From Candidatus Omnitrophota bacterium (GTDB lineage Bacteria; Omnitrophota; Gorgyraeia; Gygaellales; Profunditerraquicolaceae): a DNA stretch of 64,000 nucleotides. The translations under genes were made by a program, and so were the position numbers. Numbering within the stretch: the stretch's first letter is position 1; each line of letters opens with the position of its first letter. Shown one piece after another: positions 55,634 through 61,336 of the stretch. A model generated the notes under the pieces. It had not been told where the DNA came from and made no database searches. It saw only the letters and a program-made list of their open reading frames with translations. The DNA lies in assembly GCA_016208765.1 (NCBI GenBank), contig JACQXK010000001.1, positions 128,218 through 192,217 of the forward strand. The letters are read 5' to 3'.

Positions 55634-55711
55634 AGAAAAAAGATATGCAAAAGACTTTAGCGGCTGTATTTTGTATTTTTCGCGGGGCATTGGTTAAATA
55701 ATCCTGACAAC

Positions 55712-55765
55712 TTGTCGGCAATGGGGTTTGCCTTTAACTGCCTTAACGGCTGATAACTCCTACTA
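55712..55765 (+). promoter_or_regulatory. Fluoride riboswitch (crcB motif)
   Basis: tcGGCaATGGgGTTtGCCtttAACtGCCttaacGGCTGATaAcTCCTAC matches the consensus GGCGAUGGnGUUCGCC...AACYGCC...CUGAUGAUYCCUAC. It sits 20 nt upstream of the crcB GTG and its AGGAGG RBS. Confidence 0.75.
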
Positions 55766-55782
55766 AAAAAAGGAGGTATTAA

Positions 55783-56169
55783 GTGTTAAGGTTTTTTTTG
55801 GTTGCAGCAGGTGGAGCGATTGGAACGGGTTGCAGGTATCTGCTCTCAGGCCTTGATTATAAATTATCAGGAGGCATTTTTCCTGTCAGTACAATTTTTA
55901 TTAATCTTCTCGGTTCTTTTGTAATAGGCATTCTCTGGGGGCTTTTTGAACGCTCGGCTATATCTCCAAATATGAGGATGTTTGTTTTTATCGGTGTGCT
56001 TGGCGGGTTTACGACATTCTCAACTTTTTGCCTTGAGAATTTTAATCTTATCAGAGACGGAGAATTAAGGATTGCGCTGTGGAATATTCTTTTTAGTAAT
56101 TTGTTCGGGCTTCTGTTTGTGTTTATTGGTTTTGCTATCTCAAGATATTTGTTAAACATGCTAAAATAA
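55783..56169 (+). CDS. crcB: Fluoride ion channel CrcB/Fluc
   Basis: GGAIGTGCRYLLS motif and four TM segments. GTG start. Confidence 0.9.
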   Translation: MLRFFLVAAGGAIGTGCRYLLSGLDYKLSGGIFPVSTIFINLLGSFVIGILWGLFERSAISPNMRMFVFIGVLGGFTTFSTFCLENFNLIRDGELRIALWNILFSNLFGLLFVFIGFAISRYLLNMLK

Positions 56170-56179
56170 GGGGTGAGAT

Positions 56180-56512
56180 ATGAAGTTACCGGAAGAAGGA
56201 ATGCTTTTAAGGATTTTTGTTGGCGAATCAGACCATTACCAGGGAAAGGCGCTTTACGAACAGGTTGTTTTAAAGGCAAGGGAAATCGGCCTTGCGGGGG
56301 CGACGGTAATCCGGGGGATAATGGGTTTTGGCGCGGATAGCCGGATGCACACAGCTAAATTGCTGCGGCTTTCAGAAGATCTGCCGGTTGTAATTGAGCT
56401 TGTTGACACGGAAGCAAATCTGAATAAATTAATGCCGTTTCTTGATGATGCAGTAACTGAAGGCCTTATTACGCTTGAAAAAGTCAGGGTAATAAAATAT
56501 CGGCATGCCTGA
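56180..56512 (+). CDS. DUF190 (PII-like) protein commonly co-regulated with crcB
   Basis: LLRIFVGESDHYQGKALYEQVV...VIRGIMGFG pattern of the DUF190 family, which is known to accompany fluoride riboswitches. Confidence 0.8.
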   Translation: MKLPEEGMLLRIFVGESDHYQGKALYEQVVLKAREIGLAGATVIRGIMGFGADSRMHTAKLLRLSEDLPVVIELVDTEANLNKLMPFLDDAVTEGLITLEKVRVIKYRHA

Positions 56513-56547: not shown

Positions 56548-56590
56548 GGCGGTTCTAATTTCTTGTGGAAATAGAACCGCCCTTTTTATA
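56548..56590. terminator. Rho-independent terminator after the crcB-DUF190 unit
   Basis: GGCGGTTCTA-atttcttgtggaaa-TAGAACCGCC followed by CTTTTTAT. Confidence 0.7.
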
Positions 56591-56637
56591 ACTAGATTAA
56601 TTAAGAAAAGATTGACAAAGATACTGCATATGGTAAA

Positions 56638-56663
56638 CTTGTTATGAACATATGTTCATAACA
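56638..56663. promoter_or_regulatory. 26-nt perfect palindrome (candidate operator) overlapping the promoter of the DUF134 regulator operon
   Basis: TTGTTATGAACATATGTTCATAACAA is identical to its reverse complement. TTGACA at 56613-56618 and a TAAACT-like -10 lie just upstream, and the palindrome covers the -10/+1 region. The DUF134 gene start is at 56671. Confidence 0.6.
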
Positions 56664-56670
56664 AAGGAGT

Positions 56671-56979
56671 TTGATAATGAGGCCAAAGAAGACAAGGTGG
56701 ATTAAATGCGCCCCGCAGGAAAGATGTTTTAAGCCCTTATGTAAACCGTTAAGCAAATTAGAAGATGTTTATTTGACGCTTGATGAGTTTGAGGCTGTGC
56801 GTCTTGCTTGTGTTGAAGGATTAAAACAAATTGACGCCGCTAAGAAACTAAAGATTTCCAGGCCGACATTTTCAAGGATTTTGACTTCAGCCCAGAATAA
56901 AATTGCTGATGGTTTAGTTAATATTAAGGCGATCAGGATTGAGGGTGGTTGTTGTAAAATTGCAAAGAGGAGCAAATAA
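56671..56979 (+). CDS. DUF134/UPF0251-family putative DNA-binding regulator
   Basis: N-terminal Cys-containing region (KCAPQERCFKP) and a sigma-70 region-4-like HTH (LTLDEFEAVRLACVEGLKQIDAAKKLKISRPTFSRIL). Confidence 0.75.
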   Translation: MIMRPKKTRWIKCAPQERCFKPLCKPLSKLEDVYLTLDEFEAVRLACVEGLKQIDAAKKLKISRPTFSRILTSAQNKIADGLVNIKAIRIEGGCCKIAKRSK

Positions 56980-58151
56980 TGAAGGATTGGAAAAATTTTT
57001 TATATATTGGGGCAGCGTTTTTGGCATGCTTTTATCTTCCTGTTGAAAATCTGCGTTTTAGCAATGCAATCTTTGAGGCTTTGGCGCTTGTTAAATGGTA
57101 TGCCAGGGAGCATGTACTCCTATGCCTTGTTCCTGCATTTTTTATTGCCGGTGCTATTTCTGTATTTGTGAGCCAGGCATCAGTTATAAAATACTTTGGG
57201 GCAAAGGCAAATAAATTTCTTTCGTATGGCGTGGCGTCGGTTTCAGGGACAATCTTAGCAGTTTGTTCATGCACAGTGTTGCCTTTATTTTCGGGAATTT
57301 ATAAAAGGGGAGCAGGGCTCGGGCCTGCAATTGCTTTTTTGTATTCTGGGCCTGCAATAAATATTTTAGCCATAATTCTAACTGCCCGAATCCTTGGGTG
57401 GCAGCTTGGGCTTGCCCGCGCAGTAGGCGCAATAATTTTTAGTATTGTAATTGGTTTATTAATGCACCTTATATTCTTAAAGGAAGAAAGGGCCCGTCAT
57501 GCAAATGGAGATTTTAACGTTGGAGAGGTAAAAGAAACCCGATCTTTAGGTAAAACCGTTCTTTATTTTACTTCCATGGTAGTGTTTCTTGTATTTGCTA
57601 ATTGGGGTAAACCCATTGAAGGAGATCATGGGATTTGGTCAGCAATTTATCAGTATAAATGGTGGGTTGCCGGTTTTTCTCTCGTCGCTCTAACTGTTAT
57701 GCTTTTTAAATGGTTCAAAAAAGATGAATTAAAGCAATGGACCGGCGCAACATGGGAATTCGCGCTTCAGATACTGCCACTTCTGTTGGGTGGAGTTTTG
57801 ATTTCTGGTTTTCTTTTGGGCAGGGTTGGTCATGAGGGTATTATTCCTTCGCGCTGGGTTGAAATGCTGGTCGGTGGCAATTCTTTTCGGGCAAATTTCT
57901 TTTCATCAATTGTAGCGGCGTTTATGTATTTCGCCACGCTCACTGAGGTGCCAATTTTGCAGGGTTTAATCGGATCGGGAATGGGGAAGGGGCCTGCTTT
58001 GGCGCTTCTTTTGTCCGGGCCTGCATTAAGCCTACCAAGCATGCTTGTGTTGAGGAGTATAATGGGAACAAAGAAAACAATTGTTTATATAAGTTTGGTT
58101 ATAATCATGTCTACTATAACGGGGATGTTTTTTGGTTTTATTGTTAAATAG
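56979..58151 (+). CDS. DUF318-family permease (ArsP-like predicted permease)
   Basis: About 10 TM segments. Sequence pattern and gene context (followed by redox-active disulfide protein 2) are typical of PF03773 permeases. Confidence 0.7.
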   Translation: MKDWKNFLYIGAAFLACFYLPVENLRFSNAIFEALALVKWYAREHVLLCLVPAFFIAGAISVFVSQASVIKYFGAKANKFLSYGVASVSGTILAVCSCTVLPLFSGIYKRGAGLGPAIAFLYSGPAINILAIILTARILGWQLGLARAVGAIIFSIVIGLLMHLIFLKEERARHANGDFNVGEVKETRSLGKTVLYFTSMVVFLVFANWGKPIEGDHGIWSAIYQYKWWVAGFSLVALTVMLFKWFKKDELKQWTGATWEFALQILPLLLGGVLISGFLLGRVGHEGIIPSRWVEMLVGGNSFRANFFSSIVAAFMYFATLTEVPILQGLIGSGMGKGPALALLLSGPALSLPSMLVLRSIMGTKKTIVYISLVIIMSTITGMFFGFIVK

Positions 58152-58160
58152 GGAGGGGTA

Positions 58161-58394
58161 ATGAAAATAGAGATTTTAGGAGTTGGTTGCCCTAAATGCA
58201 AACAGCTTACAGCGAACGCCGAAGCAGCGGTAAAAGAACTCGGCATCTGCGCAGAAATTGTTAAAGTAGCAGATATAACGAAGATTACCGAATATGGCGT
58301 AATGATGACTCCTGCATTAGTCATTGACGGGACAGTGTTTTCGGCTGGAAAGGTTTTGAACAAAGATGAAATTAAGAAGATTATTTCAAAATAA
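58161..58394 (+). CDS. Thioredoxin-fold redox-active disulfide protein 2 (cytoplasmic)
   Basis: MKIEILGVGCPKCKQL N-terminus with a CxxC motif. 77 aa. Confidence 0.75.
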   Translation: MKIEILGVGCPKCKQLTANAEAAVKELGICAEIVKVADITKITEYGVMMTPALVIDGTVFSAGKVLNKDEIKKIISK

Positions 58395-58406
58395 CAGGAG
58401 GATTGG

Positions 58407-58829
58407 TTGAAGAAAATATTTTTGGTAATTCTGTCGGTTATTACGGCAATTAACATAAGTTCTTTGGCGGTTGCCCAAGATAAACAGCCAGCCAAGGTAA
58501 TAGCATACTATTTTCATGGAACGTTCCGCTGCCCGACGTGTATCAATATGGAAAAGTATTCAAGGGAAGCGATTGATACAAATTTTAAAGAAGCTGTTGA
58601 TTCAGGCAGGCTTGAGTTTACGGTGGTTAACATTGAAGATAAAGGAAATGAGCATTATGCCGGTGATTATCAGCTTTATACCAAATCTCTTGTTCTTTCT
58701 TTGGTTAAAGATGGCAAAGAAGTCAAATCAAAAAATCTTGATAAAATCTGGGAGTACTCTCGCGACAAGAAAAAGTTTATTGAATATGTGACTGGCGAGG
58801 TAGATGGATTTATGAAGGAAGGACAGTGA
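58407..58829 (+). CDS. Exported thioredoxin-like protein with a CPTC motif
   Basis: Signal peptide, then YYFHGTFRCPTC (CxxC in a thioredoxin-like context). Confidence 0.5.
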   Translation: MKKIFLVILSVITAINISSLAVAQDKQPAKVIAYYFHGTFRCPTCINMEKYSREAIDTNFKEAVDSGRLEFTVVNIEDKGNEHYAGDYQLYTKSLVLSLVKDGKEVKSKNLDKIWEYSRDKKKFIEYVTGEVDGFMKEGQ

Positions 58830-59515
58830 TGGGAATCTTAATTGTTTTTGGGTCAGCGTTCTGGTTGGGAATATTAACCTCAATCAGCCCTTGTCCGCTG
58901 GCGACAAATATTGCGGCGGTATCGTTTCTTTCCAAAAAGATCGCGCACCCATTTATGGTATTTCTTTCAGGCCTTGCTTATACAGTCGGGCGGATGGTTG
59001 CGTATGCCACACTTGGGTGGATAATTATTAATTCGTTTTTGAGTGTGCCTGAGGTTGCTCAGTTCTTGCAGAAATATATGGGCAAGGCATTGGGGCCTTT
59101 GTTGATAGTTACAGGGTTATTCTTATTAGAAATCATCACGATTAAATTACCTGGAGTCGCTTTGTCTCAAAAGCATCACAATAAACTCGTTGAGTCCGGA
59201 GCGCCGGGAGCTTTCCTGCTGGGGATAATCTTTGCATTGGCATTTTGTCCGGTTTCAGCGGCGTTGTTCTTTGGCAGCCTTATCCCTTTGGCGCTTAATA
59301 ACAAAGCAGGGACAATATTACCGTTTATCTACGGAGTGGGGACAGGGCTTCCGGTATTCATATTTTCAGTAGCTATCGCCTTAGGTGTTACCTCAATGAG
59401 CCATTGGTTCCATAAGATCACAAAACTTGAGTACTATACCCGCAGAATTACAGGCGTTATTTTTATCTTTGCGGGATTGTATTATATAGGAATTTATATT
59501 TTAAAATTATTTTAA
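58826..59515 (+). CDS. ccdA: CcdA/DsbD-family transmembrane thiol-disulfide electron transporter
   Basis: Six TM segments. Conserved Cys in TM1 (ISPCPLA) and TM4 (ALAFCPVS). Confidence 0.75.
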
Positions 59516-59526
59516 GAGGAGAAAAC

Positions 59527-60606
59527 GTGGAGCATGTTGTTTATGAAGAACGGCGTTTAAGTTTTTTTGAGAAATATCTGACTGTTTGGGTTTTTGCTTG
59601 TATCGGGATAGGAATACTTCTGGGTAAGTTTTTTCCGGCAGTAGCCCTTATTTTGGATAAATTATCCGTTTATCAGGTGTCTATCCCCATTGCTATTTGT
59701 TTGTTTTTTATGATGTATCCAATCATGGTCAAGATTGATTTTGCCGAAGTGATTAAGGCAGGAAAGGCCCCTAAACCGGTAATCCTTACATTGGTAGTAA
59801 ATTGGTGCATAAAACCATTTACTATGCTTGCTATTGCGTGGTTGTTTTTGGGAGTGTTGTTTAAAGGATGGCTTCCAGGTATGGAGATTGTGAAGGGAGG
59901 GGCGCAGGTAGAATTGTTCAGGTCATATATTGCCGGATGTATTTTGCTTGGCATTGCACCTTGCACTGCGATGGTTTTAATCTGGGGTCATTTAGCCCGT
60001 GGTAACGACGGGCATACTCTTGTTATGGTAGCAATTAATTCGTTGACGATGCTATTTCTCTATGCGCCTCTGGGGGGCTGGCTTTTGGGCGTAAATAAAA
60101 TGCCTATTCCATGGCAAACTATCGTTTTGTCTGTGGTTATTTATGTCGGCCTGCCGCTATTCTTGGGGTATTATTCAAGAAAATTAATAATTGCTAAGAA
60201 GGGTTTCAAATGGTTTGAAGAAAAGTTCTTGCATTATCTGACGCCGGTTTCTATTTGTGCGTTACTTCTCACGCTTGTTTTATTGTTTTCGTTTAAGGGT
60301 GAGTTGATAATTAATCAACCGCAGATTATCTTTCTAATAGCTGTTCCTCTTTTTATTCAGACCTGTTTTATTTTTTTCATTTCATATATATTAGCTAAAT
60401 GGCTCAAGTTGTCCTATCGCGATGCGGCTCCTTCGGCCTTAGTCGGAGCAAGCAATCATTTTGAGGTGGCAATTGCCACCTCAACCATTCTTTTTGGGCT
60501 TTCTTCAGGCGCTTCGCTGGCAACTGTTGTCGGCGTCTTAATAGAAGTTCCGGTTATGCTTATGCTGGTTAAGATTTGTTTAAAGACACAAAATTGGTTT
60601 AAATAA
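59527..60606 (+). CDS. acr3: ACR3-family arsenite efflux transporter
   Basis: N-terminus [27 protein letters not shown] matches the ACR3 pattern LSFLDRYLTLWIF. Ten TM segments. GTG start. Confidence 0.8.
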
Positions 60607-60634: not shown

Positions 60635-60680
60635 GAACGGTTTTGTTTTCTCTTAGGAAAATAAGCCGTTCTTTTTTATT
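60635..60680. terminator. Rho-independent terminator after acr3
   Basis: GAACGGtt...aaGCCGTTC followed by TTTTTTATTT. Confidence 0.6.
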
Positions 60681-60700
60681 TGTGCAGTTTAATTAAGAGC

Positions 60701-60728
60701 TTACAAAAATTGATAATTATTATATAAT
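60701..60728 (+). promoter_or_regulatory. Sigma70-type promoter for rubrerythrin
   Basis: TTACAA (60701-60706), 16-nt spacer, TATAAT (60723-60728). AAGGGAGG RBS before the ATG at 60758. Confidence 0.45.
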
Positions 60729-60757
60729 AGTAAACACAAACAAAAAGGGAGGTTAAG

Positions 60758-61336
60758 ATGGGAAAATCAATAAAAGGCACAAAAACAGAGCAGAATCTTT
60801 TAAAGGCATTTGCCGGCGAGTCGCAGGCGCGTAACAGGTATACTTATTTTGCAAGTGCCGCAAGAAAAGAAGGGCTTGAGCAAATAGCCAATATTTTTGC
60901 TGAGACTGCCGAGAATGAAAAAGAGCATGCTAAAGTTTTCTTTAAATACCTTGAGGGTGGAGATGTGGAGATAACTGCGACGTATCCTGCAGGCGCAATC
61001 AGGGATACCAAGACAAATCTTGAAGAAGCAGCAGCAGGCGAGAATCTGGAATGGACTTCGCTTTATCAGGATTTTGCAAAGACAGCCAAGGATGAAGGGT
61101 TTCCTGAGGTGGCTCGTTCATTTGAGCAGGTAGCAAAAGTAGAAAGATTCCATGAATCGCGTTATCGTAAGCTGATCAATAATATCGCAAATCAGGAGAT
61201 ATTTAAAAAGAAGTCTACAGTGAAATGGCATTGTATTAATTGCGGATATGTTATTGAGGCAGGAGAGGCGCCTAAAGAGTGCCCTGCATGTAAGCACCCT
61301 CAGGCGTATTATGAGGTATTGGCTGAAAATTATTAA
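60758..61336 (+). CDS. rbr: Rubrerythrin
   Basis: Diiron ferritin-like motifs (E..H pairs: [21 protein letters not shown]) plus a C-terminal rubredoxin-like CINCG...CPACKHP. Confidence 0.9.

Follow-up and report, generated by a model that had tools for sequence, protein, structure and literature searches.

A candidate DUF134 autorepressor and its conserved palindromic box at the head of an arsenic-resistance operon in Omnitrophota

In a stretch of 64,000 nucleotides from a single contig of an Omnitrophota bacterium (here termed 'the window', positions 1-64000, which covers part of that genome), six co-directional open reading frames were found between two terminators, each consisting of a hairpin and a U-run, that encode in order a small protein of the DUF134 family (also termed UPF0251 or COG1342), an ArsP_1 permease, the proteins ArsE, ArsF and ArsG, and the arsenite efflux transporter Acr3 (Table 1). 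On balance, the evidence favors the reading of this region as one autorepressed arsenic-resistance (ars) operon that is controlled by the DUF134 protein and probably induced by trivalent arsenicals. The anatomy of the unit, the family memberships of its products, the conservation of its promoter and operator, the link between the operator box and DUF134 genes and the presence of clade-specific cysteines in the regulator were observed here; from these observations, all of which are computational, we infer operator binding, repression and the identity of the inducer.

An initial sequence-only reading of this DNA had described a co-directional unit between two terminators with a 26-nucleotide perfect palindrome overlapping its promoter, and both parts of that description were borne out. 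The two terminator hairpins are stable and depart clearly from expectation in their z scores, neighboring reading frames either overlap in their start and stop codons or lie 10-13 nucleotides apart (the ATG of the permease gene overlaps the DUF134 stop codon, as TAATG), and the palindrome is a 13+13 inverted repeat whose first base is the last base of the -10 hexamer, such that the expected transcription start lies inside it. The predicted promoter is of the sigma-70 type, has a -35/-10 spacer of 16 nucleotides, matches 10 of 12 consensus positions, and ranks among the top two promoter-like sites of the scanned region on this strand, as well as being the sole one with a TG extension; position 56613, which had been given as the beginning of the unit, falls in its -35 region. 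The inverted repeat takes an 8-4-8 form, TTATGAAC-ATAT-GTTCATAA, in which two half-sites of eight nucleotides are separated by four. A search for further copies of the palindrome, proposed along with its description, returned a single occurrence in the 64-kb window, and none of 100 dinucleotide-preserving shuffles of the window contained a match even when up to three mismatches were allowed.

A scan of one genome per species yielded 80 orthologous Omnitrophota loci (L001-L080), of which 79 could be scored for the box, and all 79 carry the core TTATGAAC-N4-GTTCATAA at the same place upstream of the DUF134 start. Across these loci conservation amounts to 89-100% at the 20 core positions (81-95% in the central ATAT) and to roughly 30-60% at the other intergenic positions, and the flanks are near random; the core begins two nucleotides past the -10 hexamer, and the start codon follows it by 12-16 nucleotides in 73 of the 79 loci. 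When approximately 900 kb of sequence (the orthologous loci together with the window) was searched with at most two mismatches, 81 sites were located upstream of DUF134 genes and four elsewhere. Two genomes each display two further box-like sites with two mismatches per site (L030, at 8900 and 9625; L068, at 11598 and 12323), downstream of an Acr3-like gene and directly before a gene for a TolC-like outer-membrane protein, which may represent a second regulated unit in those genomes.

The main argument that the DUF134 protein binds this box is that the constant partner of the box is a DUF134 gene, whatever the cargo that follows. A scan of metagenome contigs with the exact 20-mer core, a set that is by construction ascertained by the motif itself, gave 121 sites on at least 120 contigs among the matches listed; 96 of these sites precede a DUF134 gene or operon, nine fall at the ends of contigs, and the other 16 are found elsewhere. 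Many of the DUF134 genes linked to the 20-mer encode proteins that share only 36-56% identity with that of the window and are of a classical type, bearing a zinc-ribbon at the C-terminus or a NifX-like domain fused to them; what follows these genes is not ars genes but genes for NifX-like proteins (PF02579), MinD/ParA-type ATPases or DUF5320 proteins. A further set of nine distinct classical loci was picked by protein profile alone, with no use of the motif: six of the nine carry TT(A/G)TG(A/G)GCATATG(C/A)TTATAA located 42-45 nucleotides before the start codon, between the -35 and -10 elements, two carry a (T/A)(T/G)GCATATGCCAAT variant, and one differs. The pairing of DUF134 with the palindrome is thus strongly supported by these comparisons, and it is very likely that the protein acts as an autoregulator at this box. 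Overall, some 200 related loci show conservation of the palindromic site. The palindrome had been proposed earlier as the operator of this particular operon; its link to DUF134 stands (96 of the 121 listed sites), but the predicted operator is a family-wide DUF134 box, and is not peculiar to the operon in the window.

Several additional observations accompany these comparisons. In the classical loci (from Syntrophales, Thermodesulfobacteriota and related metagenome-assembled genomes (MAGs)), a DUF134 protein with a zinc-ribbon of the MJ0401 type heads operons that contain NifX-like (PF02579) genes, some of which also hold CbiA/ParA-type ATPase or CGGC genes, and two distinct loci adjoin moeA and mobB. 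The sequence TTATGAGCATATGCTTATAA is found between -35 and -10, about 42-45 nucleotides before the DUF134 start, in loci L201, L203, L206-L208, L219 and L220, and box variants are present in L205 and L221. The 16 exact 20-mers located away from DUF134 genes precede genes for NifX-like proteins, a 182-residue membrane protein, radical-SAM proteins and an RND adaptor (loci L083, L135, L186; L095, L116, L123; L106, L145; L089; L092, L150, L084; L130), and are candidate additional members of DUF134 regulons. Second DUF134 paralogues, whose recognition helices are nearly identical, lie near the ars-linked gene in L042 (10309-10596, 41% identity) and L072 (6-206, 61%), and no recognizable box was found upstream of the second copy in L042.

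The DUF134 protein of the window aligns over residues 2-94 with positions 6-96 of the 98 in the PF02001 model, and has more than 2,000 close relatives, the best 120 of which are 82-96% identical to it and, where named, come from Omnitrophota MAGs. It is 76-95% identical across the 80 species-level genomes, as compared to 41-88% for ArsF, 40-99% for ArsE and 34-92% for Acr3, and for a small repressor it is unusual to be more conserved than most of the genes it accompanies. The AlphaFold2 model, for which 143 diverse DUF134 sequences were used (mean predicted local distance difference test (pLDDT) score of 85), contains helices at residues 35-46, 51-58 and 62-81, N-terminal strands at 7-9 and 30-34, and C-terminal strands at 85-89 and 93-95, which places a helix-turn-helix at approximately residues 35-81. 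A Foldseek comparison with the PDB identified as its best match the DNA-binding domain of Bacillus subtilis DeoR on its operator (7bhy, 8r7y; 42% identity over 40 columns, root-mean-square deviation 0.6 Å), followed by many sigma-70 region 4 domains, and the DUF134 profile matched the same DeoR domain (7bhy) with E = 1e-7. No solved DUF134 structure was found in the PDB by sequence or by profile, where the DeoR domain was the sole match.

The likeness to DeoR extends to the residues that would read the box. The DUF134 helix I-S-R62-P-T-F-S-R67 aligns with ISRPTVSR of DeoR, and Arg62 and Arg67 occupy the positions of the base-contacting arginines of that protein. The DeoR operator, ATTGAACAAAATTTCAAT...ACATATGTTCAA, receives base-specific contacts within TTGAACA, and R34 and R39 touch bases (PMC11229326); the DUF134 half-site TTATGAACA shares TGAACA with that DeoR-read sequence. 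Throughout the DUF134 family there is hardly any variation at S61, T64, R67 and K75, which fits with a box that is itself family-wide. The remainder of DeoR has no counterpart in a protein of 100 residues that displays only short beta-strands outside of its helix-turn-helix, and the sugar-phosphate domain of about 250 residues that forms the C-terminus of SorC proteins is not present. Similarity to sigma factors is limited to the structure of region 4: the sigma70-ECF model scores 20 bits, below its cut-off of 43, and the protein shows no sigma-70 region 2. A full-text literature search on DUF134 (UPF0251, COG1342, PF02001) found no functional study.

It has also been considered that the palindrome might instead be bound by some unrelated regulator, or form a hairpin in RNA or DNA, such as a 5' stem-loop acting on mRNA stability or translation, with DUF134 having a different role. 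As RNA, the 26-mer does form a hairpin of 10 bp (-11.6 kcal/mol, z = -5.3), and a few loci carry symmetric double changes that leave the arms complementary (TGAGC...GCTCA and TGCAC...GTGCA); no claim is made for covariation from pairing beyond the 20-nucleotide core, which is partly due to the T of the -10 hexamer and to weak preferences at positions -1 and +20 (G/A and C/T). However, the first base of the palindrome is also the last of the -10 hexamer, so that the RNA should start within the left arm and would lack the full stem; the box in the classical loci lies between -35 and -10 and is therefore untranscribed; the sequence of the arms is itself 89-100% conserved, beyond what pairing would demand; and a search of Rfam returned no family matching the palindrome region. 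On these four grounds an RNA hairpin or 5'-untranslated element was rejected. With the further observations that the box tracks DUF134 genes regardless of cargo, and that the closest solved helix-turn-helix homologue reads TTGAACA, this whole class of explanation is very improbable.

The mechanism that these features suggest is one in which a DUF134 dimer would bind the 8-4-8 repeat through its DeoR/sigma-70 region 4-type helix-turn-helix. Given that the site lies at the end of the -10 hexamer and covers the expected transcription start, bound DUF134 would block open-complex formation or promoter escape, and would thereby repress its own operon. Trivalent arsenic (As(III)) and/or methylarsenite (MAs(III)) might then bind to thiolates that are specific to this clade and free the protein from DNA, which would constitute a switch functionally analogous to ArsR on an unrelated scaffold. 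Once the operon is expressed, Acr3 would export As(III), the ArsP-type permease would export methylated or organic trivalent arsenicals, and ArsE, ArsG and ArsF would either handle aromatic arsenicals, as published for their homologues, or relay reducing equivalents to the periplasm, as the logic of their sequences suggests.

The thiolates in question are provided by five cysteines that distinguish the ars-linked clade, three in the N-terminal segment (residues 11, 17 and 22) and a vicinal pair in the C-terminal tail (92-93). Within the clade they are conserved in 79, 81, 80, 81 and 81 of 81 members, respectively; among 150 diverse DUF134 representatives, the commonest residues at those positions are F (32), C (25) and G (18) at position 11, Y (77), F (15) and C (13) at 17, G (127) and C (7) at 22, N (33), P (20) and S (14) at 92 (where cysteine falls outside of the six commonest), and V (40), Y (38), F (25) and C (13) at 93. 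Among all loci examined, ars genes lie downstream of DUF134 in all 96 cases in which the cysteine signature is complete and in six further loci in which it is partial or was missed by the regular expression, and none of the remaining 16 DUF134 genes, which have no such signature, is accompanied by ars genes (0/16). Two distant cysteine-type lineages lend some independence to this link: one, 58% identical to the window protein, heads an ArsP-ArsE-ArsF-ArsG operon with no Acr3 and carries the box TTATGCACATATGTGCAAAA, and the other, 57% identical, heads an operon consisting of Acr3 only, with the box TAATGCACATATGTGCATTA. Box variants are found at the same promoter position in front of the distant cysteine-type DUF134 genes as a group (56-58% identity; L216/L218 at 2616 and 5001, and L213-L215).

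The regulator had been described initially as not belonging to the ArsR type, and this was upheld: the DUF134 protein gave no ArsR-type Pfam or NCBIfam match at E <= 0.01, and a search for a hidden ArsR, using two query sequences (R773 and pI258 ArsR), found none in the 64-kb window and one among approximately 200 loci. The exception, in L021 (10797-11057), is 43% identical to R773 ArsR and lies directly downstream of ArsG in a DUF134-headed cluster, in which the two types of regulator coexist.

Vicinal cysteine pairs are typical of the As(III) or MAs(III) sites of several ArsR proteins (AfArsR, CgArsR and the MAs(III)-selective SpArsR), and the cargo of cysteine-type DUF134 genes is arsenic-specific, consisting of Acr3 alone in several loci and including the arsenite methyltransferase ArsM in the modal cluster. 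Considered by itself, the proposition that the inducer is an arsenical nevertheless stands at about even chances, and several points weigh against the reading given at the outset. Binding, repression and induction are all deduced from comparison of sequences, and the promoter is a consensus prediction. The association of the cysteines with ars genes involves one or a few related clades, and therefore corresponds to few independent events rather than to 96. A pattern of C-x5-C-x4-C plus CC would suit an Fe-S cluster, zinc or a redox switch just as well, and the five cysteines sit in the less confident parts of the structural model (block pLDDT values of 61-81). ArsP_1 permeases include exporters of Cu/Zn and other metals, and CDF and ZIP transporter genes occur in some loci, so that the signal could be another soft metal. 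Finally, the absence of ArsR rests on two query sequences and on 64 kb of this genome.

Several of these points bear on an alternative in which DUF134 does repress through the palindrome, but in response to a non-arsenical signal (sensed by way of an Fe-S cluster, zinc or disulfides, and corresponding to thiol or redox stress, oxygen, Sb, Cu, Zn or Cd), with the ars genes forming part of a general stress regulon. The suitability of the cysteine pattern for Fe-S or zinc sites would agree with such a signal, as would a cargo rich in thiol-redox proteins (ArsE, ArsF and ArsG), the TrxB-like, ZIP and CDF genes of some related operons, the Cu/Zn exporters among the relatives of ArsP_1, and the position of classical DUF134 genes beside those for NifX-like proteins and Fe-S-type ATPases, which suggests a metal-cofactor theme for the family. 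The arsenic-specific cargo of the cysteine-type loci, the resemblance of the vicinal pair to the arsenical sites of ArsR proteins, and the lack of a dedicated ArsR sensor alongside these operons in all but one of the approximately 200 loci point in the other direction, and we regard a non-arsenical signal as rather improbable.

The family assignments made for all six products in the sequence-only reading hold, including that of the permease to the DUF318/ArsP family: rounded to whole bits, the scores against Pfam and NCBIfam models, each judged by its own cut-off, are 75 (PF02001), 268 (PF03773), 104 (TIGR00412), 112 (NF040494), 279 (NF040495) and 410 (TIGR00832). The permease contains a C96-S-C98 motif (VCSC) that is present in 81-82 of 82 homologues; in ArsP of Campylobacter, a conserved CxC in the membrane is reportedly needed for MAs(III) transport. 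The models for SO_0444 (a Cu/Zn exporter) and SaoE score about 114 bits against the window permease, far below their cut-offs of 300 and 325, so that no model defines the substrate, and efflux of organoarsenicals is a putative role. Cysteines are likewise invariant in the remainder of the cargo, as CPKC in ArsE (C10 and C13; 75 of 75 homologues), CPTC in ArsF (C42 and C45; 64/64), Cys22 and Cys140 in ArsG (61/61) and Cys146 in Acr3 (53/53). A Sec-type signal peptide was predicted for 63 of the 66 ArsF homologues, and ArsG, of which residues 6-224 cover positions 5-224 of the 225 in NF040495, also matches PF13386 (59.9 bits vs 24.9) and PF02683 (30.4 vs 27.1).

That initial reading had also singled out the joining of a complete thiol-disulfide relay to arsenic-type efflux. 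The genes are present as described, but the three thioredoxin- and CcdA-like products make up a module that already bears the name ArsEFG, and its pairing with arsenic efflux is known. In Shewanella putrefaciens 200, ArsE and ArsF are said to act together in reducing the nitro group of trivalent roxarsone or nitarsone, and ArsG to export the resulting amino-aromatic arsenicals. PMC9144182 places ArsG among the efflux transporters for organic arsenicals, states that ArsE and ArsF confer organoarsenical resistance, and cites Chen, Zhang and Rosen (2019, Environ Sci Technol 53:6182) for ArsEFG within an ars operon. That the three proteins of the window act as published in Shewanella, with no thiol relay, agrees with that source and with family scores that all exceed the NCBIfam cut-offs (104 vs 62, 112 vs 60 and 279 vs 200). 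However, the signal peptide of ArsF makes joint cytoplasmic work with ArsE unlikely; ArsG belongs to the DsbD/CcdA superfamily, with its two hallmark membrane cysteines invariant; and synthetic nitro-aromatic arsenicals would be an unlikely selective agent for Omnitrophota of groundwater and lakes. The published role is judged less likely than not for these proteins. Taken together, the exported ArsF, the CxxC motifs of ArsE and ArsF and the membrane cysteines of ArsG are better fitted by a relay of thiol-disulfide exchange from cytoplasm to periplasm, running from ArsE through ArsG to ArsF, than by a cytoplasmic ArsE-ArsF enzyme, and the trio may form such a relay, at variance with its published naming as nitroreductase subunits and an efflux permease.

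Nearly all of the 80 species-level loci begin with DUF134 and continue with ars genes. In the 48 loci for which 5 kb or more of downstream sequence is available, the modal cluster is ArsP-ArsM-ArsE-ArsF-ArsG-Acr3 (20 of the 48, with ArsM identified by NF008823 at 357 bits, cut-off 263), the gene order of the window, with no ArsM, recurs in six, and DUF134-Acr3 alone is found in four. Occasional passengers include an ArsC-like protein of the LMW-PTP type, a DGC-domain protein, a second ArsP_1 permease, and CDF and ZIP transporters, as well as some TrxB-like genes. The absence of ArsC and ArsM, which had been noted initially, is true of the 64-kb window; because the modal orthologous cluster contains ArsM, the lack of ArsM is a local variant or loss, and is not a property of the system. 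Overall, what had been observed initially (layout, families and palindrome) was confirmed, and its interpretation was supported in part, given that ArsEFG is a known module, that the lack of ArsM is local, and that the box is family-wide.

Comparison with operons controlled by ArsR/SmtB proteins, such as arsRDABC of Escherichia coli R773 and the Shewanella putrefaciens 200 operon with arsP and arsEFG, reveals a shared plan: a small repressor encoded by the first gene, with predicted autoregulation, an inverted-repeat operator at the promoter, a cargo drawn from Acr3, ArsP, ArsM and ArsEFG, and a candidate cysteine sensor that includes a vicinal pair. The regulator differs, being a PF02001 protein with a helix-turn-helix of the DeoR/sigma-70 region 4 type and no winged helix (HTH_5 or HTH_20), and the operator is the DUF134 box. 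The trio resembles ArsEFG of Shewanella in passing the family cut-offs, in its E-F-G order and in its location inside an ars operon, and differs from it in belonging to an anaerobic candidate phylum, in its regulator, and in being joined to an operon that runs from ArsP to Acr3, in which an exported ArsF and a CcdA-like ArsG point to a transmembrane thiol relay in place of nitroreduction in the cytoplasm. With the CcdA/DsbD relays (thioredoxin to CcdA to ResA/TlpA-like proteins) it shares a cytoplasmic CxxC protein, a two-cysteine membrane protein of the DsbD_2/DsbD_TM type and an exported CxxC protein; unlike them, its membrane protein finds its best family in ArsG rather than in canonical CcdA, it is embedded in an arsenic operon, and no cytochrome c maturation genes lie nearby.

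Similar likenesses and differences are evident for the regulator. B. subtilis DeoR, a member of the SorC family, has a homologous helix-turn-helix, an ISRPT(F/V)SR recognition helix and a palindromic operator with TGAAC, but comprises 313 residues as compared to 100, with a sugar-phosphate effector domain in place of which DUF134 has a small module of N- and C-terminal beta-strands, and it reads a composite site of 39 bp located upstream, in contrast to a single 8-4-8 palindrome over the -10 and start. Classical DUF134/UPF0251/COG1342 proteins belong to the same Pfam family, with a near-invariant recognition helix and the same or a related box in their own promoters; unlike the window protein, they lack Cys11, 17, 22, 92 and 93 and carry C-terminal extensions (the MJ0401 zinc-ribbon or a NifX-like domain), and their operons differ from that of the window in a cargo of NifX-like proteins and MinD/ParA-type ATPases and in a box that lies between -35 and -10, rather than after -10.

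Bacterial arsenic-resistance operons are, to our knowledge, described as controlled by ArsR/SmtB, and a literature search on ars genes in Omnitrophota found nothing on their regulator. What is new here is the regulator family, its operator and the candidate cysteine sensor; autorepression as such and the cargo are familiar from other ars operons. In its broadest form, which we advance tentatively and with somewhat less than even confidence, DUF134 would be a family of autorepressors that read TTATG(A/G)(A/G)C-ATAT-G(C/T)(C/T)CATAA and respond by way of add-on sensors (a zinc-ribbon, a NifX-like domain or a cysteine cluster), and its Omnitrophota branch would be an independently evolved As(III)/MAs(III) thiolate switch over ArsP-ArsM-ArsEFG-Acr3, unrelated to ArsR/SmtB. 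If this is correct, a second, unrelated family of sensors would change how ars operons are recognized in metagenomes, and would offer a new scaffold for biosensors of arsenic and organoarsenicals. For DUF134, a family whose members in anaerobic bacteria and archaea number in the thousands, the proposal would supply a first concrete and testable function, with a defined operator together with the helix predicted to recognize it and an autoregulatory layout, and it raises the question of what signal is sensed by the classical DUF134-NifX-like operons of anaerobes. For ArsEFG, the conservation of its genes hints that the module might act as a thiol relay directed toward the periplasm and not as a nitroreductase, and the Omnitrophota, an uncultured phylum, prove to possess a highly conserved unit for arsenic detoxification.

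Table 1. Features of the DUF134-headed ars operon, with positions in the window.
Feature	Position	Strand	Evidence or remarks
Intrinsic terminator, left boundary	56548-56581 (hairpin), to 56587 with U-run	+	-20.7 kcal/mol, z = -5.4; ends the upstream crcB-DUF190 unit
-35 hexamer TTGACA	56612-56617	+	Perfect; 76-89% conservation per base, fixed distance from the box (79 loci)
Extended -10 TGgTAAACT	56631-56639	+	TG-n-TAAAnT 72-89% conserved (79 loci), except the variable fifth hexamer base
-10 hexamer TAAACT	56634-56639	+	Consensus prediction
26-nt perfect palindrome TTGTTATGAACATATGTTCATAACAA	56639-56664	.	13+13 nt inverted repeat; predicted DUF134 operator
Conserved core 20-mer TTATGAACATATGTTCATAA	56642-56661	.	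Two 8-nt half-sites, 4 nt between
Ribosome-binding site AGGAG	56665-56669	+	7 nt before the ATG at 56677
DUF134/UPF0251 protein, 100 residues, predicted autorepressor	56677-56979	+	PF02001, 75.3 bits vs cut-off 27
ArsP_1 permease (formerly DUF318), 390 residues	56979-58151	+	PF03773, 267.7 bits vs 32.3
ArsE, cytoplasmic thioredoxin-like protein	58161-58394	+	TIGR00412 (MTH895/ArsE), 104.4 bits vs 62
ArsF, exported CPTC protein	58407-58829	+	NF040494, 112.5 bits vs 60
ArsG membrane protein, DsbD_2/CcdA superfamily	58829-59515	+	NF040495, 279.4 bits vs 200
Acr3 arsenite efflux transporter	59527-60606	+	TIGR00832, 409.9 bits vs 282.8
Intrinsic terminator, right boundary	~60635-60671 (hairpin), to 60677 with U-run	+	-18.6 kcal/mol, z = -3.7

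The surroundings of the operon are those of a bacterial chromosome. Of the long non-overlapping reading frames in the window, 68 of 70 lie on the + strand, and the two on the - strand include a probably spurious one at 55857-56279, which overlaps crcB. When 61 reading frames of the window were compared with Pfam, the top 25 families were those of housekeeping genes, and the rest of the window encodes an H+-pyrophosphatase, enzymes of fatty-acid synthesis, aconitase, isopropylmalate dehydrogenase and components of type II/IV secretion; these housekeeping surroundings indicate that the ars operon is chromosomal and located on no obvious mobile element. Immediately before it lies a standard fluoride-resistance unit, comprising a fluoride riboswitch (RF01734) at 55708-55769 (+; 56 bits, E = 1e-13) directly upstream of crcB (55783-56169, +), followed by a DUF190 gene (56180-56512, +). 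Downstream of the operon, a promoter-like CTTACA-17-TATAAT at 60700-60740 (+) precedes a rubrerythrin gene (60758-61336) and is overlapped by an AT-rich imperfect palindrome, TGATAATTATTATATAATAGTAAACA, at 60711-60736 (82% complementary), which looks like a Fur/PerR-type box.

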